64,000 nucleotides of DNA. Origin: Macrostomum lignano. Its lineage: Eukaryota. Location: positions 1 through 64,000 of the forward strand of contig NIVC01000622.1 in the NCBI GenBank assembly GCA_002269645.1. The letters run 5' to 3'. The translations under genes and the position numbers were made by a program. A model generated the notes under the pieces. It saw only the letters and a list, made by a program, of their open reading frames with translations. It was not told the DNA's origin and did no database searches. Position 1 is the stretch's first letter. Every line of letters starts with the position of its first letter. Shown in pieces: positions 1 through 25,392 of the stretch.

Positions 1-823
1 AATCCCATTAAATCCATCCATATTATCCCCGACAGAATCAGAAAAAAAGGGGGGGGTCGCACTCGCTCACAAAACGTCCTCCATAATCCCATTAAATCCA
101 TCCATATTATCCCTGACAGAATCATGAAAAAGGGAGGGGCCGCACTTGCTCCGAAAACTTCGAACATAATCCCATTAAATCCATCCATATTATCCCTGAC
201 AGAATCAGAGCAGGTGTCCACTGATACCCGTTATGCTCACTGACACTGACATAATCCACTGACATCCACCCATAGCATCTTCGAAACAATCAGAAAATAA
301 TCTGCATTCTTATCCCCACATTCGATTCGCAACATGAAACCAGATCCCAAAGACTTTAAATCATCAGCGCAGGGTCCTTACCCTTTGAAAAAAAAATTAA
401 ATTCTCAATAAAAATGTTTCCAGTTGTCTCTCCAGGTTCCTATTATACTCAGCCTCATCCATTGTACAAATCCAAGTACCGATGCAAACTTGAATGCAGC
501 GAATACATGAGAAAATATTGGCCCAACGTTGATATCCATGTCCCTAATATTAATCTAGCTCTCCAAAGACACTGGTTTCATAAGTATGGAGTAGTCATTA
601 ACGATTACGACAGCTACTATAACTTTGAAATCATTAGGCAATTGTGATTTCTTACATTCTCTCAATGATCAACGTCAATACAAACTCTTCACCGTTGAAA
701 TCAACACCCATCCCATCTTCAGTCTCAAACTGTAGCACAATCTCGTGAATCTCCTTATTACTCAATACAACTCTTTTCACTGGATTTGGTTTCTCTACCA
801 CCATCTGTCCTCCAGCAACAGAG
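1..823 (+). repeat. Left terminal inverted repeat (truncated by the window edge); contains three 40-bp direct repeats (1-40, 85-124, 168-207)
   Basis: Reverse-complement match to 24524-25339. Homology ends at ...CCAGCAACAGAG (823). Confidence 0.93.
414..647 (+). CDS. 77-aa orphan protein encoded inside the left TIR
   Basis: AAAAATG start context. The paralog at 24699-24938 is also open and differs by synonymous changes and in-frame indels. Confidence 0.75.
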   Translation: MFPVVSPGSYYTQPHPLYKSKYRCKLECSEYMRKYWPNVDIHVPNINLALQRHWFHKYGVVINDYDSYYNFEIIRQL

Positions 824-1513
824 TTGGAGATGTTGTACAAAATATTCGTTCGCTTTCCCTTAAATACCCAATCAAGACTGAGATTGCTTCTGATTAGAAT
901 ATTCAAACCCTTTACAATGTCTGCAATATTGGGTGCTAAGAACAAACCGCTTACACTTTCCCGGACCATTCTAACAGTCCCGATGCTTGAGTGGCGGTCC
1001 GCGCCGCGGATTCTGCCTTATAAACTTTCTTCTCGAATCCCAGTTCCCTATACCAAGTGTCATCTTTAAACTCAACCTCCGCATCTTTGTGAACTTGCAT
1101 GACCACTCTCATTACAGTGAGATCATAGGTTAGTTTGACAGGGAACAGTTTCTTCTCTGGCTTACTCGCATCAGGTGTCTCAAAATGGCCTCTCTTAGTA
1201 AAGACATTTTCTAGAAAGTAATTGTAGGTATCCACACTTTGCGTGCTCACATGGAATAAAACAGGGTCTGCTGCTGCACCTTTCCATTTGTAATAAAACT
1301 TATTATTTGCTGCCATCACATTGGGAACGTTTGACCAACCAGTGAAGTCGTTAAGATAGACATGGTAATTAGCGCCTGGATCCAGGCTAATCGCCTGCTC
1401 TAATTTTTGAACAAATATCCCGTTTGAGTCATTAATCGCCCAGTTATTGTAATAGGAATGCTCTCCTTGGAGTGCGAAATAATATTGTTTAGTCTTTCGG
1501 CTATAGCTTCCAT
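652..1513 (-). pseudogene. Polinton minor capsid (penton, single jelly-roll) protein, two frameshifts
   Basis: Joined frames read MEAIAERL...AISLDPGANYHVYLNDFTGWSNVPNV...RELGF...LNILIRSNL...VEKPNPVKRV...IHEIVLQFETEDGMGVDFNGEEFVLTLIIERM, the typical Polinton mCP pattern. Confidence 0.85.
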
Positions 1514-1536
1514 TTTTTTCACCACAAAAAAAATAT

Positions 1537-2821
1537 TTAAACTTTACTGGATGAATTGTTGATCATGTTAAGCTTCACCTTCCTCTCAAATGCATAGATA
1601 ATGTACAGGTCCACGGTGTTGCGACAGTCCTCTCAATGTTAGTCACGATATTCACAGGGCTGTTATCAGTAGGCATTTGTCTGGCAGACACATCAGCGCC
1701 AAACATCGGATATAGAGTTCCATATTGAAGAGCAGTGATAGCAATTCCATTGTTCTCTTTCACAGCCAAGTCGACCAACTCGCTGTAAAATTTGCTAATC
1801 TTGTTCTGACTGAAATCTCCATTTTGTGGCAGTGCAGGGTAAAGATTATCACTGATTTCATGCTGAATGGACCGCACGTCTCCATGCATGTAGCGTATAA
1901 TGCTATTTGGGTTTCTCATATTAATAATGATATACCTTGGATTGCTGCATGATCCCTCTTTAATGCAGATATTTGTTCTAGTTTCGTTTCGCTCATCTCG
2001 ACACATGTAGGCCGTGTATGCAACATCAATGTCCTTCTCTATTGCCTTAAGATAATCCGCTTTTAGTGCAGTCTTTGGCTCAATGACTTCCAAATACAGC
2101 TCGATTCCGGTTAGCTTCACCTCCATCCTAGTGTGGTCCGCCCCAGTCCACAACACTCTACTGCGATCATCTCTAGTCAGTCTAAATGTGTAGCTAAAGT
2201 TACTAGTCAGTCGATTAAATGTATTACAGAATCCACTCATGAATCTCAATGGTACAAATACATCAACAGACCGATACTGCGGGTTCTTAGCAGCATCATC
2301 AGCACCTTGCAATGCATAGTTGTATCTCTTCTTCCTATTTTTATAGCCACTGTCATTGATATCTCCTTCTTTTTCGTCTGCAATAAAACCCGCACCACTT
2401 CCAATTGAATAAAATCAGTATTCTCGATCAAACAATGAGCGTCATAGACAATTCCAAAGTTGGCGATTCGCTCCAACTCAGTGCTCCCATTCGATACACT
2501 AAACTCCTTGAACATGTACGCCCAAAAGTTACTGATCAGAGCCACATCCGCATCATGCTTGTCAACGTTAGCACGAGCCGCATCCGCACCACCCTTTGTC
2601 TTGAATTGAAATGTCATATGGAAGCCGCTCCTTAGACTGTGGACACTGACCAAAGACGAACATCCATTGTATGTAAATGTCAGTGTTTGGCCAGGACCAA
2701 GATTAGTTTCATTCTGATTTTCCTGACTGGGAACTCTTACCTGAGTCGCTTTGATTGTGCTATCATCACTCAAAATAGGCTTGTTAATTTTGTAGAAAAC
2801 TGGTGTCAGTGGGTCGTTCAT
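1537..2821 (-). pseudogene. Polinton major capsid (double jelly-roll) protein, two 1-bp frameshifts (about 2410 and about 1615)
   Basis: ILSDDSTI...LISNFWAYMFKE...TELERIANFG...VPLRFMSGFC...LTGIELYLEVIEP...NPRYIII...NLYP...LYPMFGADVS. An alternative frame gives the C-terminus DLYIIYAFERKVKLNMINNSSSKV*. Confidence 0.85.
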
Positions 2822-2851
2822 TTTTTAACTAAAAATAAAATAAAATAAGAA

Positions 2852-4030
2852 ATGAAGCGAAAAAGTACACAGCAGATATCTGAATTGGAGAAGCTAGCAC
2901 AAGCAGAGAAACGAGTTACCGGGCTAATAAATAAGGAGCAACAATCCTACAATGAGTTTGTCCAAGCAGCCACCGAATTTCACAAACCCGGATACACAGA
3001 AGCGAAGAAAAACCTCGACACTGTGAAGGAAGCAGTTGATGATATTCAAGAGAGCCACTTGCAAAACACATTGGGTAAAATCCCATCTTCACCAGGACAA
3101 CCACAGGCTCAGGAACCAGGACAACCGGTGCAGATGAAAGTGACGGATAACTTTTTTGGCCCCGTAGTGGATGATGGAAAATATATTTTTGGAATTAGCG
3201 CCTGGCGAAAAAATATTACCGGGGAACCGGCGGATTACAACATTGAAGTGACAAAGGAAAACATTTCAATCAATAAAGGCGCAAAAACTAAAAGAATCCA
3301 GTTCACTCAAACTTTACTTGATTACATGACTAAAAATCTAGAGAATACGTCTAAAAAGCAGCTCAAAAATTACAAAGATCTTGTTACCTTTGCTCTCGAT
3401 AGGGATATAGATATGCTCAAGAACAACGGTGTTTTGAAAATTTTACATGAAAACGGGATTGTCTTGAACAGATTTAGAAAATACAAATACTTTAAACAAT
3501 GGTTTGGTTTGCCGGATCAGGAAGAGGTCATAAGACAACAACCACAACAACAACAGCAACAACAGCAACCGCCACAACAGCAGCCACATTTTACAGAAGT
3601 ACTCAGGCAACTGGAAAATGCAGATCCGACTCAAGTAGCTAAATATAAAAATGATCACCCAACAGACTGGCAACACTTAGAACAACACTCTCCAGATCGA
3701 ATGAACAGAATCAAGCAAAGAGTTTTCACACCTCAACAAAGACAGGCGCCACATGACAGTTCCATCTCTGAAAGTGAGCAGTCTTTTGGATCACCTCCCC
3801 AGCAGCCACAAGCCCAACCAACTCCACAACCCCAAGACCAACCACCCAAATCTGGAAAAGGAATAGCTGAAATCTACAAGCGAGTAGCGGTTCTTCTAGG
3901 AGCGGCAAAGACCGGAATGAAAGACGAGTATAGAAAAGAATTTGTCAACATCCTGGACAAAATGCTTGAGAGAAAATACATCGATAAGAGGGCGAGAGAG
4001 CTTCTGCTTTCGCGGTTCAACAAAAAATAA
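2852..4030 (+). CDS. Polinton conserved core-type protein (PZ-like) with Q/P-rich linkers
   Basis: Intact 392-aa ORF. EFHKP, FFGP, TQTLLDYMTKN...YKDLV and the C-terminal KRVAVLLGAAKTG...EFVNILDKMLERKYI resemble PZ motifs from memory; not searched. Confidence 0.6.
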   Translation: MKRKSTQQISELEKLAQAEKRVTGLINKEQQSYNEFVQAATEFHKPGYTEAKKNLDTVKEAVDDIQESHLQNTLGKIPSSPGQPQAQEPGQPVQMKVTDNFFGPVVDDGKYIFGISAWRKNITGEPADYNIEVTKENISINKGAKTKRIQFTQTLLDYMTKNLENTSKKQLKNYKDLVTFALDRDIDMLKNNGVLKILHENGIVLNRFRKYKYFKQWFGLPDQEEVIRQQPQQQQQQQQPPQQQPHFTEVLRQLENADPTQVAKYKNDHPTDWQHLEQHSPDRMNRIKQRVFTPQQRQAPHDSSISESEQSFGSPPQQPQAQPTPQPQDQPPKSGKGIAEIYKRVAVLLGAAKTGMKDEYRKEFVNILDKMLERKYIDKRARELLLSRFNKK

Positions 4031-4046
4031 TTTATTTCAAGTAAAA

Positions 4047-4435
4047 ATGCCACTTATTTTCGAAAAAGACATTGACAAATACTATGACAAAGAGGAACTT
4101 AATCTCATTAAACGCGGATCTGGACTTTTCCCTGCAGGCCACTATCCAAGAAAAGAACGCTCTGGAATGGCCTTGCCGATTTGATCGCTCAGGGGGCTAA
4201 GATTTTTAAGGTCATTGGAGAGAACAAAGAGAACATCAAGAACGTTGCCGAAGCGGCTGGCAGTGTAGCCACAGCAGCCAAAAAGATTAAAGATACTGTA
4301 ACACCTAAACAAGAGATTCAACCTCCACTGGCCCCGCTGGCCCCGCTGGCCCCAAACCCAGACAGTGTGGACCCTGCAGTCTATGAGAAGATGAGAGCAA
4401 GCATTAAAAAAGGAAGTGGTTTCAAATTTGACTAA
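4047..4435 (+). CDS. Small virion protein candidate with three GxG motifs and an amphipathic helix; 1-bp frameshift at about 4167
   Basis: Adding one A at TCTGGA(A)ATGGC joins the two ORFs: MPLIFEK...KRGSGLF...RSGNGLADLIAQGAKIFKVIGEN...KKGSGFKFD. Confidence 0.6.
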
Positions 4436-4475
4436 AGGTACTTTCCGAGGGTACAAGAAATGTAAAGGTACAAGA

Positions 4476-4623
4476 CTAGTCCCAAAATGACATACCTAAG
4501 TCCCAAAATGACACATCCAAGTCCCAAAATAACACATCTAAGTCCCAAAATGACACATCTAAGTCCCAAAATGACACATCTAAGTCCCAAAATGACACAT
4601 CCAAGTCCCAAAATGACACATCT
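4476..4623. repeat. 21-bp tandem repeat (AGTCCCAAAATGACACATCTA), about 7 copies, intergenic in the Polinton
   Basis: Directly visible. Confidence 0.95.
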
Positions 4624-4666
4624 TCTAAATTATTTATTATTAAAAAAAATTTCATCATAGAAAAAA

Positions 4667-5468
4667 ATGGACTTTTCAAGCGACTTCAATCCTCACTGGA
4701 CGCGTAATCAGATTAAGTTTTCGCATCACGAGTCAATCCCGAGTCACTTCAGATGCATTGTTGTTGGTTCATCAGGTTCAGGTAAAACATTCAGAGTCTT
4801 TAACATGCTTCTTAGACCTGGCTTTATCGACTATGACACTCTGCACATCTACTCTCCCACACTGTATCAAGATGAGTATAAAATGCTGATTTCTGGATTG
4901 CAAAAACAAACTGAACAAAGAGGACATTATTCAATGTTTTAAAAACCAACAAAACCTTCCCAGTAACCCAGAAATTGTTGCTGCCGAATATGCAAAGCAC
5001 CTCAAAGACAATAAAAAATGGCAGAACATTTAAGTGTTCACCTATGGAGATCCACAGGTGGATCCAAAGACCAAACTTCTACCCCAACCAGATGAGCTAG
5101 AAAAAGGGAGAAAGCATTTGATCGTCTTTGATGATTGTATGACAGGCCCACATAAACAGATAGAGAACTATTTTACAAGAGGGCGACATAACAATTGTAA
5201 TGTAATTTACATTGCACAGAACTGGTTCGAGCTCCCAAACAAAACAATTCGTGGGAACTGCAATCTGATTCTCCTGTTTCCAACCATTCCACAGGACAGG
5301 CTAAAAAGATTTTACAATGAGGTCATTGCGCCTGCCTATTTTATAAATCCAACAAAAAACTCAAACAGAAAGATTTCACAAGAGGAATTTGTTAACCTCT
5401 GCTGCGAAAAGTGGAACCAACCCTATCAGTTTGTCATGATCAACAAGGAAAAAAGAACTGTAATTTAA
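4667..5468 (+). pseudogene. A32/FtsK-type genome packaging ATPase; one frameshift (about 4905) and an in-frame TAA (5031-5033)
   Basis: Walker A CIVVGSSGSGKT, Walker B HLIVFDD, and the motif FTRGRHNNCNVIYIAQNW. Confidence 0.92.
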
Positions 5469-5484
5469 AATTTGCTATTAAAAG

Positions 5485-6231
5485 ATGTCTATTAATTTTG
5501 CAGGTGAATCCATTTCTGGCAACAGCGCTCTTACATCAGCTCAAATATCCATCCTTGACAGGCGATATATCAACAGCGACGAAGAGATCCCAGAGATCAA
5601 ACTGAATAAAAACAGACTGAAAGCCCTAGAGCGCTCCATGCACCAGCTACAGATAAACATAGAAGATCTCCGCATAAAAGTAGCCAGGCAGAAGTTTGAA
5701 AGTGATAAGCTTTATGCGCAGTTTGATCACAGCACTAATGAACTAAGGTCAGAAATAACTTCGGCAGTCTCGCAAATCAACGGTTTAAGAACAAATTTAG
5801 CATCGACAATTAATCTTCTGAGAAACTCCATTGATAGGCGGATGCGCATTCTTGAAGAAGGAGTTTTCACAAACATAGTTAAAGTGAGGAATTTAGAAGA
5901 GTTCATGAACCAGTCAACAGCGTTGCATGATAGAATTAAAGAAAACGTCGCAACCAATACATGTAAAGTGAGGAATTTAGAAGAGATCATGACTCAGTCA
6001 ACAGCGTTGCATGATCAAATCAAAGTAAGAATTACTGCAAATAAAGTCTTTGTAGATTTAGTTTTTACCGAATGGCAGAAATCGTTGAGAAGAATCAGTC
6101 GTCTTGAACGCTTGCATAATCTCAAAAACATTGACGCTGAAGAGGCACCACCACAGACCACAAGGGAAATAAGTGATCCAACCGACTTGTTTGAGATCAG
6201 GCGTAGAATGGAGCTCACAGACAATGAATAG
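5485..6231 (+). CDS. 248-aa coiled-coil protein with an internal duplication (possible fibre/spike)
   Basis: Intact ORF with heptad pattern and the repeat KVRNLEEFMNQSTALHDRIK / KVRNLEEIMTQSTALHDQIK. Function is inference. Confidence 0.65.
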   Translation: MSINFAGESISGNSALTSAQISILDRRYINSDEEIPEIKLNKNRLKALERSMHQLQINIEDLRIKVARQKFESDKLYAQFDHSTNELRSEITSAVSQINGLRTNLASTINLLRNSIDRRMRILEEGVFTNIVKVRNLEEFMNQSTALHDRIKENVATNTCKVRNLEEIMTQSTALHDQIKVRITANKVFVDLVFTEWQKSLRRISRLERLHNLKNIDAEEAPPQTTREISDPTDLFEIRRRMELTDNE

Positions 6232-6342
6232 GCAAATTCGAAGAGACCCGTTGCCGTCACTGCAGACGAAGCAATCAACCGTAAAACAAATCTAACACCA
6301 CCAACTAGTTGTCGATTTTTTTTTTAAAAATTCCCTTAAAAA

Positions 6343-7014
6343 ATGGATGCTCAAAATTCTCTTTATGATCCGAATGCTCCCACAGCACCTAGTGCACCCC
6401 AATATGAGCAGCAAAAACTCTACCCCGTCATTACTTGTAACTCTCAACAGTTTCGACTGGTGGAGATTCAAAAAATGCGCGATGATCTTGAAAAAAATAT
6501 TTTCCACAACACAAAGAAAATTAAGCGCTATGACAACCACTGTAAATTTTTCGACTACAGCAATATGATTCTAGGATCTGTGTCTGTTCTATCTGGATCT
6601 GCTGCAGCTGTCTCAGTGTTGCCAGCCATCACAGTCCCAATCGCAATTCCACTTGGTTCAGTAGGTGCTGCATGTGGACTTATTTCAGCAATTACTGGAG
6701 CAGTAGCGCGAAACAGGCGAAAAAAACTAAAGCAGCTACAGGAGAAGCAAGTAAAAGAGAAAGGGGTGCACACATCAATCATAGGGTACATTTCAAGGGC
6801 AATCGAGGATAAGTTCATTTCAGAGGACGAGTTCAAAACCATTCAGGATCTTTATGAACAATCAATTCGAATGAACTTGAACATGGTCGGTACTGAGGAC
6901 ATGAGTCAGCTGAGAAATGAACTCGAGAAAGTTTTTCAACATTATGCGGAAAGAAAGTCGGCAAGAAATTCGGCAAGAAATTTGGCAAGAAGGACGACGA
7001 GAAATGCACAATGA
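6343..7014 (+). CDS. Conserved Polinton membrane-associated protein (GasderminX-like of adintoviruses)
   Basis: LYP...FRLVEI...KKIKRY, a central G/A/S-rich hydrophobic hairpin, then RKKLKQ...ISRAIEDKFISEDEF. Confidence 0.65.
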   Translation: MDAQNSLYDPNAPTAPSAPQYEQQKLYPVITCNSQQFRLVEIQKMRDDLEKNIFHNTKKIKRYDNHCKFFDYSNMILGSVSVLSGSAAAVSVLPAITVPIAIPLGSVGAACGLISAITGAVARNRRKKLKQLQEKQVKEKGVHTSIIGYISRAIEDKFISEDEFKTIQDLYEQSIRMNLNMVGTEDMSQLRNELEKVFQHYAERKSARNSARNLARRTTRNAQ

Positions 7015-7018
7015 ACCC

Positions 7019-7420
7019 TTATGAAACACAGCCAAGAATAATTTCCTTGTAGGTCTTTCGTGTTTTGGTCATTGCATACAAAACAGTCATGCACAGCTCA
7101 CCGCAAATATCACTGCTAAGACCTTGGAGAATAAAGTCTGAGCGATAAATTTTTTTATTATTTTTTCCCTTCATATAATTTCTTAGCTCTTCTGGTACTG
7201 CCGTCCCATAGCCATCGAAGTAATAACACTTGTGCTTGCCATCGGGATCAATCACCCAGCAAACCCAATGAGATCCTGGCTTATCGGTGGTGTCAAAGTT
7301 CATGATGCCGCATTCTTTTCTTAGAGGAATATCAGGCAGAGTGTCCCTCATAAATATTCCTCTAAAGTTTGGGATTTCCAGTTAGTTAGCCAAATCTTCA
7401 AGAAAGTTATTTGTCGTCAT
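7019..7420 (-). pseudogene. Adenain-like cysteine protease with an in-frame TAA at codon 13 (7382-7384)
   Basis: IPNFRGIFMRDTLP...GIMNFD...PGSHWV...YYFDGYG...LQ...DICGELC. The upstream ATG at 7420 is in frame. Confidence 0.92.
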
Positions 7421-7493
7421 TTTTTATGAGGTTTATTAAACTTTCTCTCAAACCTAAACCTAAACTTCACCTCCTAAACCTAAACTCCACCTC

Positions 7494-8157
7494 CTAAACC
7501 CAACTTCCACCTCCTAAGCCTAATCTCCAATGCCCGAACGGCAGACTGTTGATATTGTCATCAAAAATGAATCTCTTGTTATCTGCACCTGACAGTCCAA
7601 TCTTCTTTTGCTGAATTGTGTGAATAATATGGTTTTTAGATTGTAGCTTTGAGAACTCATGTGATGTCTTTTTGTTGCAATTCAAGGCGTCTCTGTATTC
7701 AGCTTCATTAATTTCCTTCCTAACCACACGTTTCGGAATTCCCTTTGATTTTTTAATTGGGTCTGACGACTCACATTTTACAAAATAGGACTTTGCTCTC
7801 AACCCAATGAATTCAGTGATTATGTCACCAGCAATCTCGTCCTTCATTTTCCCAATCACTTTCTTGTTAGTGGCGTCAAACACTTGATCGCCATTCTGTG
7901 TCCTGCAAGATTCATCATACTCAGACAAGTCAAACAAATCTTTTTGCTGCAGCATGTCCTGATAAATGTCTTCTGTTTGAATATCCATAATAAAACTGTC
8001 TGTGTCAGTGTACAAGAGTTTCATTTTATCCTTGTACTGCTGCTTCATGCCATAGAAGAACTGGTACATCAAACGTTTTGATTCGTCGAGAACAGTGACA
8101 CCTGTATAGATCGGCTTGCGCAGCGTCACCTTGGTTTTGTAAAATATGATCACACCT
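7494..8157 (-). pseudogene. polB: Protein-primed DNA polymerase B, 3' part (after the retrotransposon insertion)
   Basis: KPIYTGVTVLDESK...LLYTDTDS...GKMKDE...LRAKSY...KSKGI...DNKR. Rejoins the 5' part in frame once the insertion and one TSD copy are removed. Confidence 0.95.
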
Positions 8158-8256
8158 GACTTACTTCTTTGACTTAGCTGCAGGGCTGTCCCGGAGGGGA
8201 CACAGCGGGAAGGCGCGGGCGCCCATTCCGCTAGTCCCTGAACGGCCGACGCGTCG

Positions 8257-14200: not shown

Positions 14201-15027
14201 CAAGGTCCAGTTTTGCACATGTTTCTCTGTAGCTTGGTTACAAGGATTTTAATAAAAAATATAATAAATATGTCCAATGTACTAACTGATACATAGCCAA
14301 ATTGAAGTATTTTCAAAAACAAAAAAAATCATTTGCTCAGTTTACTTTACTGGATATCTGTGTAAAATTTCAGCTCAAAAGGTGCTCCATGGAGAATGCT
14401 AGTGTGGTTACAGGATATTTATTTTGTGCTTCAAAGTAGGAGTTTATTGCGATGCATGGTTGCTTTTAATTATTTTTATCAACAATAGTGCTCTATTTCA
14501 TAACAATTTTTTACAAAAAGATAAAAAGACATGTTTTTCTAATTATCTGCATCAAAATGTATCATTTTAAGCGCACATTCTAGACGTCAGCTGAAAAAAT
14601 ACATTTTGTGAGACGCAAAGAGGCTATCCCACCGGAAATGCTAGGCGTACAGTTAAGCGTCTATAAAATCATTTATAGTGCAGTTTATTGAGCTTTAAAA
14701 AAATCTTAAATTAAATTTATATAAGCTTTAATTTTAAATGTAATATAGCAAGGTTTCAACACAACAACAACTTTTTTTTAGCTACAGACATCTTGTAGTA
14801 CCAAAAATTAACATCGGTGAAATGATTGAATTTGAATTTTTTCATCGCTAATTATCGCTTAATACCGCCAGATGATTAAAAAACACTTTTGCATGATAAA
14901 GTTTAACCCAAAAATTATCTTTATTCACAGATAAAAGTGTCCTATTATTTTCAATATGGCAGTAACAATAGTAAATGTTCGGAAAATTGTTAAAATTTTT
15001 GCTCCTCCTAGAATTTGCGAACGACCC
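11225..15027. mobile_element. Non-autonomous DNA transposon (3803 bp) nested in the retrotransposon ORF2
   Basis: Imperfect TIR of about 20 bp (GGGTCGTTC(T/G)CAAA..CTAGG) at both ends, with TGCA on both sides (11221-11224, 15028-15031). Removal restores LDLHLQEL in frame. The interior is AT-rich with no transposase ORF. Confidence 0.85.
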
Positions 15028-15803
15028 TGCAGATCAAGGGCAGCCTTGTAGGCCGCCCAATCAGTGTTGCGGATATTGCGTCTCCAAGTGATCGGAGACT
15101 GGGTTTTAGTGTCCGCGATGTTAAAGGCGATAAAGCAGTGGTCAGACAGGGAGGGCTCCTCAGACCAGACTCTCCACTCCTCAACTCTGTCAAAGAGTCT
15201 TGGGGTAACGAGTGTGGCGTCGAGGACCTCGGTCCATCTGCCATTATTAAAGGTAGGAGTGCTGCCGCGGTTGCAGAGCATGAGGTTTGTGTTAGAGATG
15301 AGGGCCAGAAGCTCCTCTCCTCTAGTGTTGGTATCTTTGCTGCCCCAGTGCTTGTGGTGCGCGTTGAGGTCGCCCCCTAAGCACAGCTCAGCGTTCTGGG
15401 ACTCGCAGTACTGCGCGAGGCGCAGTAAACTCTCAGGAGCAGGGTCTCTGTCGCCTGGGATATAAACCGAGGCAACAAGACACGTACGCGGAGAGAAATG
15501 ATTAGATTGGATGACACAAAGGTCTCCATCAGAGAGATCAGTCCTCAGCCAAGCTTGGAGATGGCTAGCAGCGAGGATAGCCGCTCTAGGGCGGCTGTTC
15601 CCCGGGCCACACACATAAAAATCAGAGTAGCCAGAGGGAATGTTGGGCAACTTACCGTTGCGCATCCAGGGTTCCTGGATCAGGATGAGGCCTGGCCTGT
15701 ACAGCTCAGCAATCTTCATCAGATTTACTGACGCAGATACGCAATGCTGTAAATTAATTTGCAGACAGAATGTCGCTCCTTTGGCAGCGTGGAGCTTAGT
15801 CAT
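15028..15803 (-). CDS. Retrotransposon ORF2, 5' part: apurinic-type (APE) endonuclease
   Basis: LQINL, LIQEP, ASVYIP, GGDLNAHH, NRGSTPTF, LDATL, SDH. Confidence 0.95.
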
Positions 15804-15826
15804 ACTGTATTAAATGCAATTTCTGG

Positions 15827-17404
15827 CTAGAGCCCAGGGCCATCAAGGAGACTTGGACAACAGATCGTCCTCGTCCCAGGCCGCTGGGCTTGACTGGGAG
15901 ATGGGAGTTGGTCGACGTCCATGGCCTCCTCACCCCCACCGGCCCCCCCAGCAGAGTCCTCAGGCTCCGATGACAGGATGGAGGAAGCTTCCTCACCTGC
16001 ATCTTTACCTTCAGACCCCACCAAGGTGGCCGAGGAGAGCTCGGATTCCGAAGACCCGGCCTCGTCCTCAACTCCTTCTCCGACTGGCAGGTTTGGTTCC
16101 CGGGGCTTGGCCGGAGCCGTTACCACGGTCGCCGAACTGCTGCTAGCAGACGGGCGGGATGCAGCTTTGGCTTTGGGATCGGCTTGCGCCTTTCCTTGGG
16201 CCTTAGACTGCGCCCCGCTCTTGCCGGAGATGCCGGGGTTGGCAGTAGCCTTCCCTTTGGCAGACTTTCCTCGGCGCATCTTGAGCTTGAGGGCACCCAG
16301 CTGGAAAGAGGATCCATTAGGGTACCGACTCGCCCAAGTGCTGGAAAGGCCGAGGACAATTGAGTTGCCCGTCTCCCCCCTGCGGACTTTACGGTGATAC
16401 ACCAGTCCACTAGCAGGGAGGTCGGGGTTCAGACGCAGTAGGACCCGGCGAATAACGTCTGGTCCAGCTGCGGTGCTCTTAGCAGGGACGAAAACCACAT
16501 AGGGTATCGTCTTTGGACGCTGGCCCTCGCGAAGAAAAAGAGCTCCGCCAAGGTCAGCATCCAAGGAGACCGTCGGTAGCCGCTGGAGCAGCCGCCGAGC
16601 GTCCTCCTCGCTGCTAGGAGCAATAAGAACGAATGTGCTTCGCAGCACCATCCGCTCAATGCCGATGGAGATTCCCTCCTCGACAGTCAGCTCAATCAGA
16701 TAGGAGTCAACAGCACTCCACACTTTTTGAAGCTGATCAGTGGTCCAGTCCTGGTCGCGACCTTGGATGATCACTCCCGGGATTTTGGCCTTGGCCTTCG
16801 CCGCAAAGGTAGCTCCCGAAGGAACCTCCTTGTTGGCAGTGGCCATTTGTTGCGCCGTGGTTTCGGCCTCAGCAGCCGCGGCAGCAGCTCCAGGGAGCGC
16901 CGCCGCTGAACTACTGGAGCTTCCACCGGCCGGCCCGCCTGGTTGCCTTGGGACTCCAGTCGCTTCAGCATCCATGGTGGACGCCGCCGCTTTGGCCCCC
17001 GCAGCTCCCTTCTTGGCCTGCCTTTTGGCGCGTTGTTTAGCGCGTTTGCGCTCAAGCCGAGCCCGCTGAGCTTCATCGGATCTGCCAGATTTGGCCGGTC
17101 CTTTAGGCTCAGAGCTCGCGGTTCCCTTAGATCCACCAGCGGAGCTGGCAGGTCTTTGGGTATTTTGAGTTTGGTAGCTCTGGTCGGATCTGCCAGCAGA
17201 GCCAGCCGGTCCTTCCTTTGCCACAGTTGAATCAGTCGGTTGGGATCTGCCAGCAGGGCCGGCCGGTCCTTCGGACTGAGGTTGGGGTTTAGAAGGGTCC
17301 CCGTCCCTAGAGTTAGCTTGATTATCCATAGACGGCTCGAAGGCCATGATAAAAGGTTGGTGGGCTACCCTCAAAGGGGCGCGGTACCCACCCGGCCGCT
17401 CCAC
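15827..17404 (-). CDS. Retrotransposon ORF1 (gag-like, low-complexity flanks, central folded domain)
   Basis: Intact 525-aa ORF directly upstream of ORF2. No CCHC knuckle is visible. Confidence 0.85.
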   Translation of the reverse strand: MERPGGYRAPLRVAHQPFIMAFEPSMDNQANSRDGDPSKPQPQSEGPAGPAGRSQPTDSTVAKEGPAGSAGRSDQSYQTQNTQRPASSAGGSKGTASSEPKGPAKSGRSDEAQRARLERKRAKQRAKRQAKKGAAGAKAAASTMDAEATGVPRQPGGPAGGSSSSSAAALPGAAAAAAEAETTAQQMATANKEVPSGATFAAKAKAKIPGVIIQGRDQDWTTDQLQKVWSAVDSYLIELTVEEGISIGIERMVLRSTFVLIAPSSEEDARRLLQRLPTVSLDADLGGALFLREGQRPKTIPYVVFVPAKSTAAGPDVIRRVLLRLNPDLPASGLVYHRKVRRGETGNSIVLGLSSTWASRYPNGSSFQLGALKLKMRRGKSAKGKATANPGISGKSGAQSKAQGKAQADPKAKAASRPSASSSSATVVTAPAKPREPNLPVGEGVEDEAGSSESELSSATLVGSEGKDAGEEASSILSSEPEDSAGGAGGGEEAMDVDQLPSPSQAQRPGTRTICCPSLLDGPGL

Positions 17405-17865
17405 CTGACCGGGCAGTAGGCCAATAGCACCCTCAAGGCTGGCCCGACACCAGGAGGGGGACCGCTTGCGACCGGACTACTCCCCGGCCTTCCAGCCCAT
17501 CGGCACGGTCAACACCTTAGGCATTAGAGAGTACGTTGAGCAGTACCACGGCCTGCAGGTTGGCGAGCCAGACCCGCATACCCAAATTCGGCCGAAGCCA
17601 CTGGATAGGGTCGCCAGCGCCGGAGCCCAGTCTGTCCAGCAGCCCTAGGGACTGCCTTGAACACACGCGGGGACGAGTACCCTGGGTCGACTTGCGAGAC
17701 AGCGTGGGGGGGGGTCTGCGGCTGCCAGAGGCAAATAGAGGGTGCAGACCTCCCACCAGCCTTGACCTGCTGAAGATAGGGGCAGGCGTGAAGCATCGCA
17801 GACCTTAGCCCATGGGCCTAGTCTGTCTCATACTTCACTGGCATGCTGAATACGCCTTCGCGTGC

Positions 17866-20800
17866 ATGATCACACCTAAGTAGCTATTAAAGATATGGAG
17901 TTCTTTGAATGTTGGCTTTGACATATTTGCCTGAATAACAGCAGGCTCTGATGAGGTAACAAGTTTCAGGTTTGTTCTTTTCCGCTCATTCTCAAGAGTC
18001 TTGCCATAGACAGAGTTGTTGGCCAACTTAAAGAGGTTCTTGTCAAAGTCGTTGGTTGCTTTGGTCCTAAACTGGGTGTTCTTATCAATGTAGGGTTTCA
18101 TCCACGCTTCCTCTGTAAATGTAAGAGCCCGGTGAACTTTGGTGACCCTGCAACCAAGTGAGATAAAATATTGAAGCAGTTTGTAATGAATTTTGTAACG
18201 TGTCTTGTTGTTTAGATTCTGTGTTAGTTTCTCTGTATGTTCTTTTTCTGTTCCTGACAGGTGCCAAGTTCCATTGGGAGTTTCGATTATTTTCGGGCAC
18301 TTGATGTTCTCTGGGAAGGGTGGAAAGTCAGAGAAATAGTCGTGAAGCTCTGGTGGAATGTAAACATCAACCTCATAAATGGCAGCCAATGAAAAGTCCC
18401 ACTTTAGTTCTGATGAAGGTAGCCATCGAAAATCTCTAACTGGAAGATCTTGACTCATCGCCCAACCGTAGAGATTATTAGCGTCCAAGTAAGTAATGTA
18501 GTTTGAGGGCTGCTCCTTATTGTAAGATTCAATGTAGGGATTGTTTGCTTTCGCATACCTGTTAACGCAAATTGAGATCCCCCTCGCTTTGACGATTCGA
18601 CAAAATTGTACATGTCAATGTCTGTAAGAAGTTCAATGTACCAATCTGGATCTTGATCCCATTTCATTTTAAGCAAAGATTCCCAGCTAGTGGCAGGCAG
18701 AGACACATAATGTGCTGGATCGAGGCCATATGCTGTGTACCAGGTATATCTGAAGGTTTCAAACACATCGGCCAGCAGAAACACATCTGTGTAGAGGTAA
18801 AGCAGGTGATACTGGAAGAAGTTTTGACAATTAAAGTAATTATAGACATGCTTCGCGTGCTCATAGTCTTTGTCAGAGATTCCAGAGTCTGTTAGCTTTG
18901 AAAAGAACTTTTCTTGTGGTGGTAAACCTTCTTCAAATACGTGATAACCGGTAATATTCTCATAGGGGTAGAAGCCTTTCTTTCTTAAAAGTTTAAATGA
19001 TTCATCACTGTTGTAAATTTTACTTGCAAACATCTTTGTATATGTACATTGTTCATCTTTTAGATTCTTGCTTAGTTCGTCTAGACTGGCAGCTAGAAAT
19101 TGATATGAATCCTTCAGTCTTATTTTACCTGTACCCAAATTATCCTGTTTAATATCAACACACTTAAACTTCTCCTTGTTCTCTGCGATGCAGTCAAGGT
19201 GTATGTCTGGAATCATGCCGATTTTTTCAACTATTAAATGCATGTCATAGTTCTTTGCGTTGTGACAAAATATCGTTAGATCATGAATGTTCGATTTTAG
19301 CTTTAGATTACAGGTGTTATGCGCTGCACCTCTAAATTTCCCAGTAAAGTGGCAGTGGTCCCTAACGGTGGGGTTTTTAATATCAGTGCAAGTTAACTGT
19401 TTCCTGCAGATGTGGCAATGAGTTTCTGATAGGAAATTGCTTTCATCCTCCTCAGTCATCATTATTGGAACAGGTTGAAGGGTGCTAATAACTTTTTGCA
19501 ACTCTAACATTCTGGCAATAAACTGCTCCACACACTGCTCTCCAAAAAAATAATTATACTCAACAAGTCCTTTTGTAGTAATAAAGACATATGCTACTGA
19601 ATTGGGGACATGTTTTTGAGTTTGAGTTTGTTTTTGAGTTGGAGTTTGTTTTTGAGTTTCTGGCATGATTGAGCATTCGAAATCAGCATATACAACAAAT
19701 GGGAGCTTCTCCATCTTGTGATAGTTCTTAAACCGGAGATACTTCTCTTCAGCTGAAGGAAGAGAGCAGTTGGTCGGGTGATCCTCGCATGATAATTCAT
19801 GTTCTGTTAGTTTTTCAAAGCGTTCAAGTCCACTGTAATGCTTAAGGCACAAGCGACAGATGGCAACAGCCTCGTGATGATTATTCAACTGCTTGTGAAT
19901 GAGTCTTGAGAGATCTTTAATCCAAACATAGTGAGCCTCCTCTAGTAAATTACCAATCACTAGAAGATCCACTACAGTCCGCCTTTTCCCCTCAGGATCT
20001 AAAACGTCTTTGCTACATCTGACCGGTTGAACTTTTCAGTTTTCTCACTCCACTCAAAGACTGTGATTCTAATTTTGTTATTAAACACTTCTTCTAGCTT
20101 AGGGATCTGAGAAATCGCCAAGCCTCCTTTGTCAAACCTGATTCCCTTCTTTTCACATTCGATGAGATAGTCCTTGAAATAATTTTGATAATTTGAGGTT
20201 CTTTCAGGGTGGTGAGGGACACTTTCATGAAGAAGTGCAGAAAGAACTGCCCATAGAGCACAGCAATTGTCTTTATTTTTAACATTTATGCAAGCTTTTT
20301 TGCCGGCAAGCTTATGCGGGAGCTCTATATAAGAGGAGGCTTTAAGTGGGTCATATTTCATGACCATGGCAGTCGCTCTTTGAATCCCTCCCACGACCCA
20401 TCCGGAACCTCTGGATGTAAACGCTTCAATTTTCTTAGTGACATCTTGAAGGAAAGGATCTAGTGTGTCTGTAGGGGTGAATGGCTTCGCCTTTGTTGTC
20501 ATGTAATACTCGAGATGCTCAGTGGGTTTTGCAGGCATATAAAACGCAATCTTGAATGATATCTGTAGTTTAAAGGTCTTGCGTGTTTTGAGTGTGTGAT
20601 CAACAACTGATTGGATGCTGTCTTTATAGTCGAAGATGTTTGCGGTGGTATCCTTAATTGGGATTGTGTACTCTACGTAATGTTCTGTAAACTTCCTCTG
20701 TGCAAAATTAATCTCTTCAATGGCAAGCTCCGACTCTTTTAAATGGATTAATTGCTCTAATTTCTCTTGTTCCTGCTTATTTTGTGGGTACTTTGCTTTT

Positions 20801-21063
20801 TCACCAGTGAGAGTTTCGTATTTGTTAACTAAGTTGCGACTCCTCTCTTGGTGTTCCTTTGCAGGATTTTTTATAGGCGCATACTGGTTGGATTCTAATT
20901 GATTGATGATTTCCAACTGTTTTTCATAGCTTCCCAGGTGACCAGGGTCGGTGTTAAACTTTTGTTTACATGATTCTCTTAGTAAATTACTTTTGTCTTG
21001 AAATGAGACGCCTTTTGAAAAATATTTGTTGACTAAATCTTTTGCTGGATTGGCTTTTGGCAT
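17866..21063 (-). pseudogene. polB: Protein-primed DNA polymerase B, 5' part (N-terminal region, exonuclease, endonuclease VII-like insert, motifs A/B); 1-bp frameshifts at about 20025 and about 18580
   Basis: RGSGW, CINVKNKDNCC, VYADFEC, VRDHCHFTGKFRGAAHNTCN, CHNAKNYD, KDSYQFL, KGFYPYE, TDVFLLADVFE, DANNLYGWAMSQ, KLANNSVYGKT. Confidence 0.95.
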
Positions 21064-21186
21064 TTTTTTCTCTAAAATATAAAAAAAATTGAGGGTGACC
21101 ACCCTGGTAGAAAAGTTGAACTGTTTCTACATCCTATAAGTAGCGTTAGGTTCATGAAGCTGGATAAAGTGGGATTTTAAACCTCA

Positions 21187-21633
21187 TCACATGCGCATTA
21201 TTGTAAACCCAGCATTGTGCAGTGTCATGATGGCTTTGACAATGTCAGACTTGCTTACAGAATTTTCATGCTCACAATCATCACGATCGGGGCAGCCCTC
21301 TCCTGCCTTAATTGTTATACCTTTGTCTCTTGCAATCTTTTGCAATTCAAGCTGGTGGGCTCTATCATTACCAGCTTTAACAGCAGTTGCTACACCTCCA
21401 GCTACACCACCTGCGGCACTTACAGCGCCTGCAATGATTGGGATAAGAGCTGCTAATGGTAGGATTCCTCCTGACTTTTCATCTGTGATGCTGTGTCTTT
21501 GTTCATTACACTGAACTATTTGCTGCGTGGGATCGATTTTTACTTTGATACCTTTAATTGATATAAGACCTGGTTTCTTTGATTCAATGATTTTATTGAG
21601 TTTATTGATGGTTCTGGTTTCAATCTTTGTCAT
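21187..21633 (-). CDS. Virion core protein with an adenovirus pX-like hydrophobic segment
   Basis: KSGGILPLAALIPIIAGAVSAAGGVAGGVATA resembles the adenoviral pX C-terminus (RGGILPLLIPLIAAAIGAVPGIASVA). Confidence 0.7.
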   Translation of the reverse strand: MTKIETRTINKLNKIIESKKPGLISIKGIKVKIDPTQQIVQCNEQRHSITDEKSGGILPLAALIPIIAGAVSAAGGVAGGVATAVKAGNDRAHQLELQKIARDKGITIKAGEGCPDRDDCEHENSVSKSDIVKAIMTLHNAGFTIMRM

Positions 21634-21649: not shown

Positions 21650-22629
21650 TTAATTAATTTCTGTGTCAGCTGGTATCACTAGGAGTTCAGCTCTAGTGAA
21701 TGACCGCGTGGGGGATTTAGGGTTAAAAGCCTGAGATAAAAAGTAATAGTCACCGGAGTCGGAGGTAAAATGTCTGTCTATTTTATGTACATCAAGGCTG
21801 AAGTATGGATCTGTAGCTCTTCTTTTAGTGTCCTTCTCTAGCTCTCCAGGTAGATATAAAAAGCGTAGAAACTCAGAGTTTGTCAGTATGTATGGTGATT
21901 CAACTCCTGGAAGCTTAGGGTAGTTCGAGGTGTCTGTTCTATGAGATGATTTAAGTTCGACAGTGTCTTGTTTAATTGCATGGGACGGTTTCAATCCAGT
22001 CATGCGTGTGACTTCATTGTTCAGTTGCTCTATAACAGTGGGGAGGCGGTCTGTCTATTTTGAATAGTACTGACCACTTTTTATTTTCAGCTCTTCAGCT
22101 GTCTGCTTAGTGAATAGCCTCTTGGCTAGAGTTAGATTGAATCTTTCCACAAAAGCCTGATCTCTGTGGAGCTCAGTTCTGCGTCATACTTATGTAGAAG
22201 TGATTTCACTGCCCCAAAGAGTTCTTTACCCGGGTCGGTCATAAAGATTTGGGGGTATGTGAGCGGAGAGTTTTTATAAATATCTTGGAGGGCGGCTGCA
22301 ACTGCTTCTGACTTCTTCGTCTTAAGCGGTCTCGCTTCCTTATATCTGGAGGCAACGTCTGTAATTGTAAGAGCATACTTGTAGCCTGAGTCGTTGGGGA
22401 GAAACAAAAGATCTGCTTGGTGCGCTTCATTAGGTTTATAGATGCTAAAGTGAGGTCTTGTAAATTTTACTGGTGGGAAATAGACTTGGTAGACTGCTTG
22501 CTTAGAGAGCCACTTTTCTACTTTAGCTTTTGGTTCCTCACTTAGTTCTGCGAGTTTGGTGACTGCATTTTTTCCTACAAAGAATCCTTTGTCGCTGTAG
22601 TAGAGTTTTTTAAGTTTCTGATCTGTCAT
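21650..22629 (-). pseudogene. Retroviral-like DDE integrase (c-integrase); frameshift/deletion at about 22165 and in-frame TAG at 22055-22057
   Basis: HQADL (D), ITDVASRY, MTDPGKE (D), HRDQAFVERFNLTL (E), then RLP...LNNEVTRMTGLKP...RATDP. Confidence 0.92.
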
Positions 22630-22659: not shown

Positions 22660-23109
22660 ATGCAACGCTCTGGTGGTAAGTTAGATTCACATGGACTGAT
22701 AGAAAAGCTTCCTCATCCAAACAAAGGCTGGACACTTCCCGGCTATAAATATTGCGGGCCTTTGAATCCACTTGAAATTCAGTTGGATAAAAACAATAAT
22801 CCAAATCCTGGGCACGAGCCTGTGAACGAGCTAGACTCTGTCTGCATGTGGCACGATGTTAAATATAGAGATTTTCCTGAGGAGAAGAATCGCTGGGACA
22901 AAGAAATGATTAGAAGACTAGACAATATAGGGGCTTCAAGCGGGTGGAAGGAATCGATCGCTCGGAAGCTAGTTAAAGCTGTTATTTTTGGTAAGACAAA
23001 GTTGGGGTTGGGGGTCGGCGGCTGTTTGGGGGCGGGCTTTGCATTGCACGCACCAAGTAAAGAATTAGGAAGACTGCTGAAAGAGCTGGGGGTTGAGAGA
23101 GCAGAATGA
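22660..23109 (+). CDS. Parvovirus VP1u-type phospholipase A2 protein
   Basis: LPGYKYCGPLN (Ca-binding loop YxGxxx) and PVNELDSVCMWHDVKY (catalytic HD). The ORF is intact. Confidence 0.88.
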   Translation: MQRSGGKLDSHGLIEKLPHPNKGWTLPGYKYCGPLNPLEIQLDKNNNPNPGHEPVNELDSVCMWHDVKYRDFPEEKNRWDKEMIRRLDNIGASSGWKESIARKLVKAVIFGKTKLGLGVGGCLGAGFALHAPSKELGRLLKELGVERAE

Positions 23110-23364
23110 GTCAAGCAAGAAAATTCAGCTGGATTGGCGGCTGTTTTGGAGAAGAGAGAACCGGGAGGGGGATTTGCATTGCACACGCCAAATAGAGACT
23201 GCGTACATCGTCAATGCACACATCGTCAAATACAGACAGGTTGAGTTTGTCTGTATTTGAGGCAGTTTTCCGACAGTTTCTATTGAGCAAAAAAAAAATC
23301 CGACAGTTATTAAAACATAGCGGTTCACAACAACCATTTGCACCGTTTGCAGATCTTGCAGCAT

Positions 23365-23556
23365 CTATTGACCCTTTAATAGTGTTGCAATTGATCCAAC
23401 ACCTGAACCAGCTTGAGCTATTAGATTATCTTTAACTAAATTTTCTGCAGAAGTTAAAAAATCTAGAATTCCTTCTCCTTCATATCTATAATATTTTTTA
23501 TATTCTGCTTCAATAATGAAAAAAATTGACAACAAAAATATTTTAAATCTAAACAT
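23365..23556 (-). CDS. Possible small virion protein remnant (GEG motif followed by an amphipathic helix)
   Basis: KYYRYEGEGILDFLTSAENLV...AGSGVG. It lacks the A-rich start context of the other genes and may continue by frameshift. Confidence 0.35.
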   Translation of the reverse strand: MFRFKIFLLSIFFIIEAEYKKYYRYEGEGILDFLTSAENLVKDNLIAQAGSGVGSIATLLKGQ

Positions 23557-23681
23557 GGTAAAAGTGACTCAAGTGAGTCAACATGTGTTCAAAAAGATGG
23601 TATTTGTATTTTTTGTGTGAAAACACGCCACACACAAGTAGAATAATAAGTCAGTTTATTGATTTTTTGTCGCGCGCTATT

Positions 23682-24113
23682 TTAGATTCGCCGGGGAATT
23701 CGCGACCGTTGGTTGCCTTGAGGTTGAGCTTGAGCTTCAGGTTGAGCTTGAGGTTGAGCTTGAGCTTGAGCTTCAGGTTGAGCTTCAGGTTGAGCTTGAG
23801 CTTGAGCTTGAGCTTCTTGGTATGGTGGCGGTGGCTGTGGCAACTCAATGTTGCGGATGTTGCGAGTCTGCAGAGCGACTGCTTCTTGCTCGTCATAGTT
23901 TCTTTGGCGTGCTAGTTGTTGTTTAAATCGTCTTAAATTTTGGATAAACCTTTCAGTCTTCTTTAGCACTTCTTCTGAAGCGTCTACGAGAACTTGGTCG
24001 TCCATTTGATTGAATAAAGTTTCGGGCTTTAGGGTTGTTAAGACATTTCTATAAACCACAGACGTCATCTGCGCCGTAGCTCTCCTAGCTCTAACTGTGG
24101 CAAGGCCAGACAT
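23682..24113 (-). CDS. 143-aa orphan with a helical core and a (QA/PE) repeat tail
   Basis: Intact ORF with a GAAAATG start context. Confidence 0.6.
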   Translation of the reverse strand: MSGLATVRARRATAQMTSVVYRNVLTTLKPETLFNQMDDQVLVDASEEVLKKTERFIQNLRRFKQQLARQRNYDEQEAVALQTRNIRNIELPQPPPPYQEAQAQAQAQPEAQPEAQAQAQPQAQPEAQAQPQGNQRSRIPRRI

Positions 24114-24523
24114 TTTCTAGTGAATTTTTTTGTGAGGAAGCGCGGCGAAAGCTGAGTGATTAAAAAATCTACCCAATATATATGGCTGCAGAAACATAGC
24201 TTCCCCTTTTGAGAAGGGAAGAGAAATTTGTTCCTATAGTGTTTAGAAGGGAGGAAGGGAAGGGAGAGAAGGAAGAGAAGGAAGAGAAGGGAAGGGAGTA
24301 GAAGGGAAGTTCCCTTTTGAGAATAATAGAGATTGTACGGAGGAATGAAATTTGGTGTACAAAGGGTGAGGGCAGCCACACAAAGGATTGCATTCCTTTC
24401 TGTCAGAATTCTGACTAGCTGACGGAAATTTGCCGCGTTTCTGCAAATTTCCGTCAGCTGACAGATATTTGACGCAATAAAACACTCACCATTTACTATA
24501 AGTAGTTTTTTCCTAACCCTAAC

Positions 24524-24694
24524 CTCTGTTGCTGGAGGACAGATGGTGGTAGAGAAACCAAATCCAGTGAAAAGAGTTGTATTGAGTAATAAGGAGATTC
24601 ACGAGATTGTGCTACAGTTTGAGACTGAAGATGGATGGGCGTTGATTTCAACGGTGAAGAGTTTGTATTGACGTTGATCATTGAGAGAATGTAA
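24524..24694 (+). pseudogene. Duplicated 3' end of the minor capsid gene inside the right TIR
   Basis: Near-identical to the reverse complement of 652-823 (one missing G, one substitution). No start codon. Confidence 0.85.
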
Positions 24695-24698
24695 GAAA

Positions 24699-24938
24699 TC
24701 ACAATTGCCTAATGATTTCTTCAAAGTTATAGTAGCTGTCATAATCTTTTACATAGGTTACTCCATACTTATGAAACCAATGTCTTTGGAGAGCTAGATT
24801 AATATTAGGGACATTGATATCAACGTTGGGCCAATATTTTCTCATGTACTCGCTGCATTCAAGTTTGCATCGGTACTTACTCTTGTAATTAGGCTCGTGC
24901 GCTTTGTAATAAGAACCTGGAGAGACAACTGGAAACAT
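24699..24938 (-). CDS. 79-aa orphan protein in the right TIR, paralog of 414-647
   Basis: Same start and core (KSKYRCKLECSEYMRKYWPNVD), with two diverged patches. Confidence 0.75.
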   Translation of the reverse strand: MFPVVSPGSYYKAHEPNYKSKYRCKLECSEYMRKYWPNVDINVPNINLALQRHWFHKYGVTYVKDYDSYYNFEEIIRQL

Positions 24939-25392
24939 TTTTATTGAGAATTTAATTTTTTAAAGGGTGAGGACCCCTGCGCTGATGATTTAAAGTCTTA
25001 GGGATGTGGTAGCACGTTGCGGATTGAATGTGGGGAGAAGAATGCAGATTATTTTCTGATTGTTTTAGAAATGTTATGGGTGGATGTCGGTGGATGATGT
25101 CAGTGTCAGTGAGCATAACAGGTGTCCACTGTCTGATTCTGTCGGGGATAATATGGATGGATTTAATAGGATTATGTTCGAAGTTTTCAGAGCAAGTGCG
25201 GCCCCTCCCCTTTTTCATGATTCTGTCAGGGATAATATGGATGGATTTAATGGGATTATGGAGGACGTTTTGTGAGCGAGTGCGACCCCCCCTTTTTTCT
25301 GATTCTGTCGGGGATAATATGGATGGATTTAGGTGGATTCTGGGGACGTGAAAAATTTTGTCCCAAAAGCCCCCTCATGCCTTCTACTCTCT

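Follow-up and report, generated by a model that had tools for sequence, protein, structure and literature searches.

A probable disabled Polinton/Maverick copy of a divergent, likely young multi-copy family in Macrostomum lignano

Organization of the element

Positions 1–64,000 of contig NIVC01000622.1 (GCA_002269645.1) from Macrostomum lignano, the whole 64,000-nucleotide stretch referred to below as the window, begin with a large element (1–25392) that carries terminal inverted repeats, virus-like genes and a nested retrotransposon. The element is very probably a disabled, integrated Polinton/Maverick copy, provisionally of the Alpha adintovirus type, belonging to a divergent and likely young multi-copy family. 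An initial annotation made from the sequence alone had described terminal inverted repeats, about 15 genes and an insertion of about 9.7 kb, without which the element would measure about 15.7 kb. This anatomy was recovered: both repeats are present, a 9,720-bp insertion is bounded by an exact 12-bp duplication (8146–8157 and 17866–17877), the element minus the insertion comprises 15,672 bp, and it holds 15–16 open reading frames (ORFs).

1–823: left terminal inverted repeat, truncated by the window start; within it lie a tandem repeat of 83 bp, a short ORF and the minor capsid gene's 3′ end
414–647, plus strand: 77-aa ORF within the left repeat, without family match
652–1513, minus strand: minor capsid (penton-like) gene, identified with a profile of related-locus proteins; two frame breaks
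1537–2821, minus strand: major capsid gene of the PF21738 double-jelly-roll type; two frame breaks
4047–4435, plus strand: small amphipathic-helix protein (cupiennin/pVI-like candidate), absent from the initial annotation; one frame break
4667–5468, plus strand: A32-like packaging ATPase matching related loci; one frame break
6343–7014, plus strand: 223-aa helical hairpin protein, tentatively SLATT-like (the GasderminX of the initial annotation); two membrane segments, open frame
7019–7420, minus strand: adenain-type cysteine protease in which the His, Asp and Cys motifs are found; a stop interrupts the frame close to the 5′ end
7494–8157, minus strand: C-terminal piece (motif C) of the protein-primed DNA polymerase (pPolB), severed by the retrotransposon
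8158–17865, minus strand: non-long-terminal-repeat retrotransposon (LINE, long interspersed nuclear element) with ORF1, apurinic/apyrimidinic endonuclease, reverse transcriptase and RNase H, and with the 12-bp target duplication
11225–15027: AT-rich non-coding DNA transposon nested in the LINE, 3.8 kb, whose inverted ends (GGG..CCC) are short and imperfect and which shows a 4-bp duplication
17866–21063, minus strand: N-terminal and central part of pPolB (PF03175 type) with an endonuclease VII-like insert; two frame breaks
21187–21633, minus strand: pX/mu-like protein, 148 aa; open frame; PF05829 at 30.1 bits against a cut-off of 25
21650–22629, minus strand: rve integrase (PF00665, 5e-9); one frame break and one in-frame stop
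22660–23109, plus strand: phospholipase A2 (PLA2) of the parvovirus VP1 type, 149 aa; open frame; calcium-loop and His-Asp motifs
24524–25392: right terminal inverted repeat, ending in CTCTCT; carries a 99.4 % copy of the final 176 bp of the minor capsid gene

In a self-comparison, the repeats (1–823 and 24524–25339) are the sole long inverted pair, with 91 % identity across 831 columns. The right repeat extends to CTCTCT at 25387–25392, which is among the Maverick end motifs, (AG)3//(CT)3 or (AGT)2//(ACT)2, given in PMC8097293. The right end therefore has the form of a Maverick terminus, while the left end falls outside the window: the window starts approximately 53 bp inside the left repeat, which places the left terminus and the target-site duplication beyond view. 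The length of the repeat is about 870 bp.

A Pfam scan of 27 frames, together with profiles of homologues and of related loci, bears out the identities that had been proposed for the major and the minor capsid protein, ATPase, protease, pPolB and integrase, and thereby the reading of the locus as an endogenous Polinton with a full set of morphogenesis genes. Eight element genes have family matches. Those above the Pfam cut-offs are PLA2 (4e-14), rve (5e-9), PolB_2 (2e-9 and 1e-7) and Adeno_PX (5e-7), and those below, each backed by homologues, are DJR-like (6e-5), Peptidase_C5 (3e-4) and Pox_A32 (7e-4). Fourteen related IMG/VR loci, at 37–44 % identity, were recovered with the polymerase. For the penton-like gene, each half hits a profile built from three related-locus proteins that are putative pentons (E 1.5e-6 and 2.5e-7), and the A32 ATPase and adenain protease match the related loci with E values down to 1e-24.

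The major capsid protein has nine homologues, none of them informatively named, six of which span 87 % or more of the query at 66–71 % identity. All five full-length homologues score above the PF21738 cut-off, and one such protein can be aligned with three frames of the window, at identities of 85, 71 and 80 %. The close capsid relatives are unnamed environmental proteins. The capsid profile detects capsid ORFs in 3 of the 14 IMG/VR loci, which reach only 10 kb from the polymerase match, so that absences carry little weight; related-locus scans with the capsid as query recovered none in IMG/VR and none in JGI metagenomes. The pPolB pieces are collinear with relatives of 1,294 and 1,319 aa, the putative OTU region aligns with those relatives, and the central region is of the PF03175 type. 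The third catalytic motif of the integrase lies beyond its frame break.

State of this copy and its sister copies

The initial annotation had called the element near-complete, which holds for its gene content and understates its damage. All six core genes are broken, by the LINE and by part of a total of 11 frameshifts and stops: two breaks each in the penton and capsid genes, one each in the small protein and ATPase genes, a stop in the protease gene, two breaks in pPolB in addition to the LINE, and a frameshift and a stop in the integrase. The LINE splits pPolB between motifs B and C. The PLA2, pX-like and 223-aa genes are open, and the copy is unable to replicate by itself.

Related copies are found in public sequencing runs. 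Of 24 listed runs, 20 contain the stretch 600–8100; all 20 come from one organism and are spread over seven studies, and none is listed as RNA. Four of these were mapped on 1500–21490, where each covers 30 of 30 bins and differs from the window at 245–269 substitution places over 19,991 bases (1.2–1.3 %). Among the variants inspected (40 of the 349 substitution rows and 12 of the 41 indel rows), an indel or a loose contig end falls at all six frameshifts inside the mapped stretch, so that other copies differ from the window there. The small distance between sister copies and their differences at 6/6 frameshifts point to a family that is likely young and multi-copy, with breaks that are not family-wide. 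In one run (X6), a loose end at 17866 continues into the sequence that precedes 8146, which corresponds to a LINE-free site. The suggestion that sister copies should be sought in raw reads was thus borne out as regards copies 1.2–1.3 % different, including the LINE-free site; an intact copy in one piece was not seen in the four mapped runs, whose contigs are short. Two runs presumed to derive from RNA were considered as evidence of expression and rejected, as their long contigs also cover the non-coding nested transposon.

The frameshifts may in part be artefactual. A possible explanation, though one less likely than real decay, is that most of them are consensus errors of long-read assembly and that, in the true copy, only the LINE and one or two stops interrupt the genes. 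All 11 single-base length differences checked touch a base run of at least two, against a background of 62 %, and 5 of the 11 touch a run of at least five (from the 12 of 41 indel rows); such differences are also present in both the LINE and its nested transposon, with most of the contig depth in the other runs lacking them. However, natural slippage likewise prefers base runs, and no reads from the window's own individual were identified. The two in-frame stops and the approximately 250 substitutions with their excess of transitions (154 of 248 substitution places in run X1) look like real divergence and favour genuine decay of this copy.

Mosaic structure of the terminal repeats

The identity between the two arms is not uniform, amounting to 97.1 % in the outer part, 88.5 % in the middle and 99.4 % in the inner part. 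The inner part extends into the penton gene, whose last 176 bp (648–823) are duplicated as 24524–24694 at 99.4 % identity, suggesting a recent extension of the repeat. The 77-aa ORF of the left repeat has a 79-aa variant in the right repeat (24699–24938, minus strand), likewise without family match. The two differ in two short patches that keep the frame, whereas the flanking repeat is 97–99 % alike, and the pair resembles two variants of a variable gene. Taken together, the mosaic of identities and the clustered, frame-keeping changes suggest that family variants have exchanged sequence or that the copy is chimeric, rather than that the repeats are old.

An explanation in which the copy is a chimera of two family members joined by recombination or mis-assembly is rather improbable. 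It would account for the 97.1/88.5/99.4 % pattern and for ORF differences that are clustered and frame-keeping, unlike random decay; on the other hand, the gene content is complete and non-redundant, partial homogenization during replication could produce the same pattern, and the left flank lies outside view. Two telomere-like units of the CCCTAA type are present at the inner edge of the right repeat (24510–24523), and a similar 20-bp tandem lies past the polymerase stop (7453–7529); these may be due to chance.

Proposed life cycle and particle formation

By analogy with known Polinton and adenovirus biology, the rve integrase of a working family member would insert the linear genome, and pPolB would replicate it from the repeat ends by protein priming, as outlined for the terminal-protein/vOTU/polymerase polyprotein in PMC11161782. 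The A32 ATPase would fill a capsid composed of both the major and the minor capsid protein, and the adenain protease would mature small precursors that bear Gly-x-Gly. The pX-like protein is likely a core or scaffold protein. Entry would likely proceed via the phospholipase, perhaps aided by the small amphipathic protein encoded at 4047–4435. The two hydrophobic segments of the SLATT-like protein likely anchor it in a membrane, and it would more likely act in the infected cell, in exit or exclusion, than as a matured part of the virion. The Gly-x-Gly pattern, an ad hoc one applied with no control, occurs in the pX-like, PLA2, small and 392-aa proteins and is lacking in the SLATT-like protein, which leans towards a non-virion membrane role for the latter. 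Working members of the family would likely package their DNA into jelly-roll capsids.

Expression of hallmark genes has been reported for coral polintoviruses (PMC11131425). It is unlikely, but conceivable, that the family spreads purely as an intracellular transposon, with the virion genes as passengers and no particles being formed. Such a view is in line with the fact that particles had remained unobserved for vertebrate Mavericks as of PMC8097293, and that nothing in the analysis demonstrates capsid RNA or protein. However, the capsid homologues are open, with lengths of 422–438 aa and 76–79 % identity among themselves, and at both capsid breaks other family copies read differently from the window, as would fit selection acting on the capsid.

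A bolder proposal goes beyond the preferred reading of a disabled copy from a young family: this would be a deep, uncatalogued lineage that is still active and makes infectious particles with two membrane-breaching routes (the phospholipase and an amphipathic peptide), together with a SLATT-like pore in common with invertebrate iridoviruses. It is regarded as doubtful. If an active, particle-forming lineage did exist, it would constitute a natural system for observing Polinton virions in a well-sampled animal. Virion formation by animal Polintons is a long-standing question, and the present family is young-looking, occurs in seven studies of one organism and stands far from named relatives; capsid RNA or protected DNA, if found, would make it a direct test case. 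The gene kit itself would hardly surprise a specialist, and the residual value of the family is practical.

Accessory genes and the proposed entry proteins

The initial annotation had listed three candidate membrane-active proteins: a parvovirus-type PLA2, an adenovirus pX-like protein and a GasderminX-like hydrophobic hairpin protein. The first of these is well founded, as both its calcium-loop and its His-Asp motif are present and align with parvovirus VP1, in addition to the Pfam match. For the second, the PF05829 match stands and the membrane activity is not supported: in adenoviruses, pX is a core protein with an arginine-rich middle peptide that binds and condenses DNA, as stated in PMC7998265. 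The pX-like ORF of the element is lysine-rich before the conserved region and, as judged by eye, has no arginine run, so that this feature of adenovirus mu is missing from it.

The third protein appears to have been mislabelled. The PF05829 profile, which detects the ORF at 21187–21633, finds no pX domain in the 223-aa hairpin protein. The latter has 204 relatives at E ≤0.001, and an alignment of 110 sequences yielded a model with a predicted local distance difference test score (pLDDT) of 87, in which two 60-residue helices (34–91 and 95–156), linked by a hydrophobic tip, are accompanied by two shorter helices; the hydropathy peaks, 1.85 and 1.89, start from residues 76 and 97. In BFVD, three iridovirus proteins are its best predicted-structure matches (E 7e-7 to 3e-5), and SLATT-named proteins, including SLATT-annotated giant-virus proteins, account for 7 of the best 50 BFVD matches (best E 5e-4). 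VIA fold matches reach a Z of 11.9, which is ordinary for long helices. Atlas searches returned only unnamed clusters for this protein, and an unrelated low-recognition family for a piece of the penton protein; a scan of metagenomes with the hairpin protein recovered no related locus. No gasdermin occurred among the 15 PDB sequence matches, the Foldseek matches listed, the 50 VIA matches and the best 25 of 40 Pfam families, a blank that does not amount to exclusion. With modest confidence, sequence and model suggest that the protein is SLATT-like rather than GasderminX. The annotation of a two-segment hairpin gene that is common in such elements would be corrected accordingly, to a SLATT-like protein with iridovirus look-alikes. 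The look-alikes are uncharacterized proteins of three invertebrate iridoviruses, and the predicted folds may be a sign of gene exchange between Polintons and iridoviruses.

The original proposal, in which PLA2 is united with a true GasderminX in an Alpha/Beta accessory hybrid with several entry modules, is very improbable, since the hydrophobic hairpin, the weak likeness to pore-forming or translocon proteins (among the 110 aligned members, RTX N-terminus in 14 and ApoL in 2; AopB by PDB sequence, E 0.003) and the presence of a cupiennin-like candidate in the element are outweighed by the missing pX domain, which is typical of GasderminX in PMC8502044, by the iridovirus and SLATT-annotated nearest folds, and by the SLATT labels on the maps of the Hydra and Stylophora Alpha adintoviruses shown there.

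The small protein at 4047–4435 is the stronger lytic-peptide candidate. Its helix moment exceeds that of 300 shuffles (P 0.03, uncorrected over 12 proteins), and it occupies the same position as small proteins in two of the related loci (L001 and L002); a profile match to the small proteins of related loci was not significant. Gly-x-Gly motifs lie beside amphipathic or hydrophobic stretches both here and in the ORF at 23365–23556, and the two are candidate virion peptides that the initial annotation did not contain. The remaining ORFs of the element are the following.

2852–4030, plus strand: 392-aa ORF whose C-terminus weakly resembles a conserved Polinton protein of four related loci (L001–L003 and L007); E 0.003, probability 11 %, a lead
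5485–6231, plus strand: 248-aa ORF with a coiled coil and an internal repeat; not assigned to a specific family
23365–23556, minus strand: 63-aa ORF, an uncertain gene, with a hydrophobic N-terminus and a short, weak likeness to a small protein of L001
23682–24113, minus strand: 143-aa ORF bearing a repeat rich in Q/A/P; without family

Relationship to known elements and novelty of the lineage

The closest described systems are the Alpha adintoviruses of the Stylophora and Hydra type, which, in PMC8502044 (Starrett 2021), share with the window the pPolB class, integrase, ATPase, adenain, hexon, penton, PLA2 and a pX-like domain, and in which PLA2, pX and SLATT have been described. The cnidarian adintovirus maps in that source also carry SLATT and Cupiennin labels, for which the window has candidates. 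In contrast, these viruses fuse PLA2 and pX (PLA2X), whereas the window encodes them as separate ORFs on opposite strands; its gene order differs as well, and its pPolB reaches no more than 43 % identity with the proteins compared and falls in no supported clade.

Of the related loci, L001 (IMGVR_UViG_3300027549_000010) is the most similar in content. It shares with the window the integrase, a stand-alone PLA2, ATPase, penton, pX-like and SLATT-like proteins, a small amphipathic protein, the PF21738 capsid, a pPolB with the endonuclease VII insert, and the protease, and its PLA2 and pX-like genes are likewise separate. It differs from the window in its capsid (22 % identical) and pPolB (36–44 %), which groups with Stylophora proteins, and in extra genes downstream of the protease. 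PLA2 is present in 3 of the 14 IMG/VR loci and the SLATT-like family in 3 of 14, L001 alone containing PLA2, pX (weak, E 0.008) and a SLATT-like gene together with all core genes. Since L001 has the whole kit, the PLA2/pX/SLATT combination is not special to the window element. As regards a possible Mayetiola-class virion module, the capsid profile matches another locus, L007, which has a fused PLA2 and pX and an insect-type gene set.

Further parallels are found among polinton-like viruses (PLVs). Those associated with entomopoxviruses combine an adenovirus-type protease, a parvovirus-type phospholipase, an A32 ATPase and a mu/pX-like protein, as does the window, and mu-like genes beside PLA2 have been reported in insect PLVs. 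Unlike the window, they have no rve integrase (none detected, or a tyrosine recombinase), some encode primase-helicases, and poxvirus occlusion bodies accompanied three of them (PMC11296320). The SLATT proteins of PLVs and giant viruses resemble the hairpin protein in having adjacent hydrophobic segments in a helical hairpin and in occurring in small DNA viruses (PMC12220804). They have been proposed to form pores, and 868 SLATT genes in cryptophyte PLVs have been linked to a proposed endosomal escape (PMC12220804; also 10.1101/2025.10.09.676808). The window protein differs in its weak profile scores and in having unnamed iridovirus proteins as nearest folds. In PMC12220804, cryptophyte PLVs are reportedly without lipases, whereas the SLATT-like gene of the window co-occurs with a phospholipase.

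The three entry modules are consequently no notable kit: one was probably mislabelled, pX is a core protein in adenoviruses, the combination recurs in L001, and its parts have been published. The gene kit is known, and it is the lineage that is new. For the central pPolB piece, 2,702 relatives were found at E ≤1e-30, the best 120 of them at 31–41 % identity, with insects, molluscs, a spider and a coral among those named. In a quick tree of 52 rows, built from 41 of the 120 listed proteins and length-filtered ORFs of related loci, the window forms the longest end branch (1.3), although long-branch joins in such a tree are unreliable. This distance plausibly fits an uncatalogued family, though distances of this kind are common among Polintons, and no published description is tied to the family in the literature searched (Repbase not compared).

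Several findings weigh against the reading of the locus as a disabled Alpha-type Polinton from a young family. At 91 % overall, the repeats are more divergent than a young single insertion predicts, and an intact sister copy in one piece did not appear in the mapped runs. The Alpha-class label is indirect, the pPolB tree holding no named adintovirus reference. A natural capsid homologue modelled as a stand-in reached a pLDDT of only 37.5, its weak capsid fold matches being discarded, and the capsid and penton profiles gave no meaningful match to solved structures (PDB sequences); because no confident fold was obtained, the jelly-roll claim rests on family membership. The SLATT profile scores of the hairpin protein are also weak (NCBIfam SLATT_1, NF033634, E 0.014; 2 of the 110 aligned members in Pfam SLATT families).

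Nested insertions and flanking DNA

The insertion noted initially is real, and its nesting had been understated: it is a LINE that itself contains a 3.8-kb DNA transposon. The 549-aa ORF1 of the LINE is without Pfam or NCBIfam family, and the element ends in a short repeat tail. Its motifs suggest that it may be Loa/Lian-like, and it is abundant in the four mapped runs. The nested transposon is possibly Sola2-like, judging from its ends. A joint skipping its 3,807 bases occurs in 4 of 4 public runs, and its other insertion sites are visible as loose ends in runs X10 and X18.

An Rfam scan of 1–30000 gave no match. Beyond the element, exons of a host gene with LRR and PDZ domains, probably Scribble-like, extend over 37492–62036 (plus strand), and its introns are full of diverse minisatellites with units of 4–46 bp. 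This flank by itself points to an animal as the most likely host. A dispersed 350-bp repeat, with 88 % identity, is found in three copies in the flank (26301–26659, 36029–36371 and 39032–39232) and is probably a small non-autonomous element.

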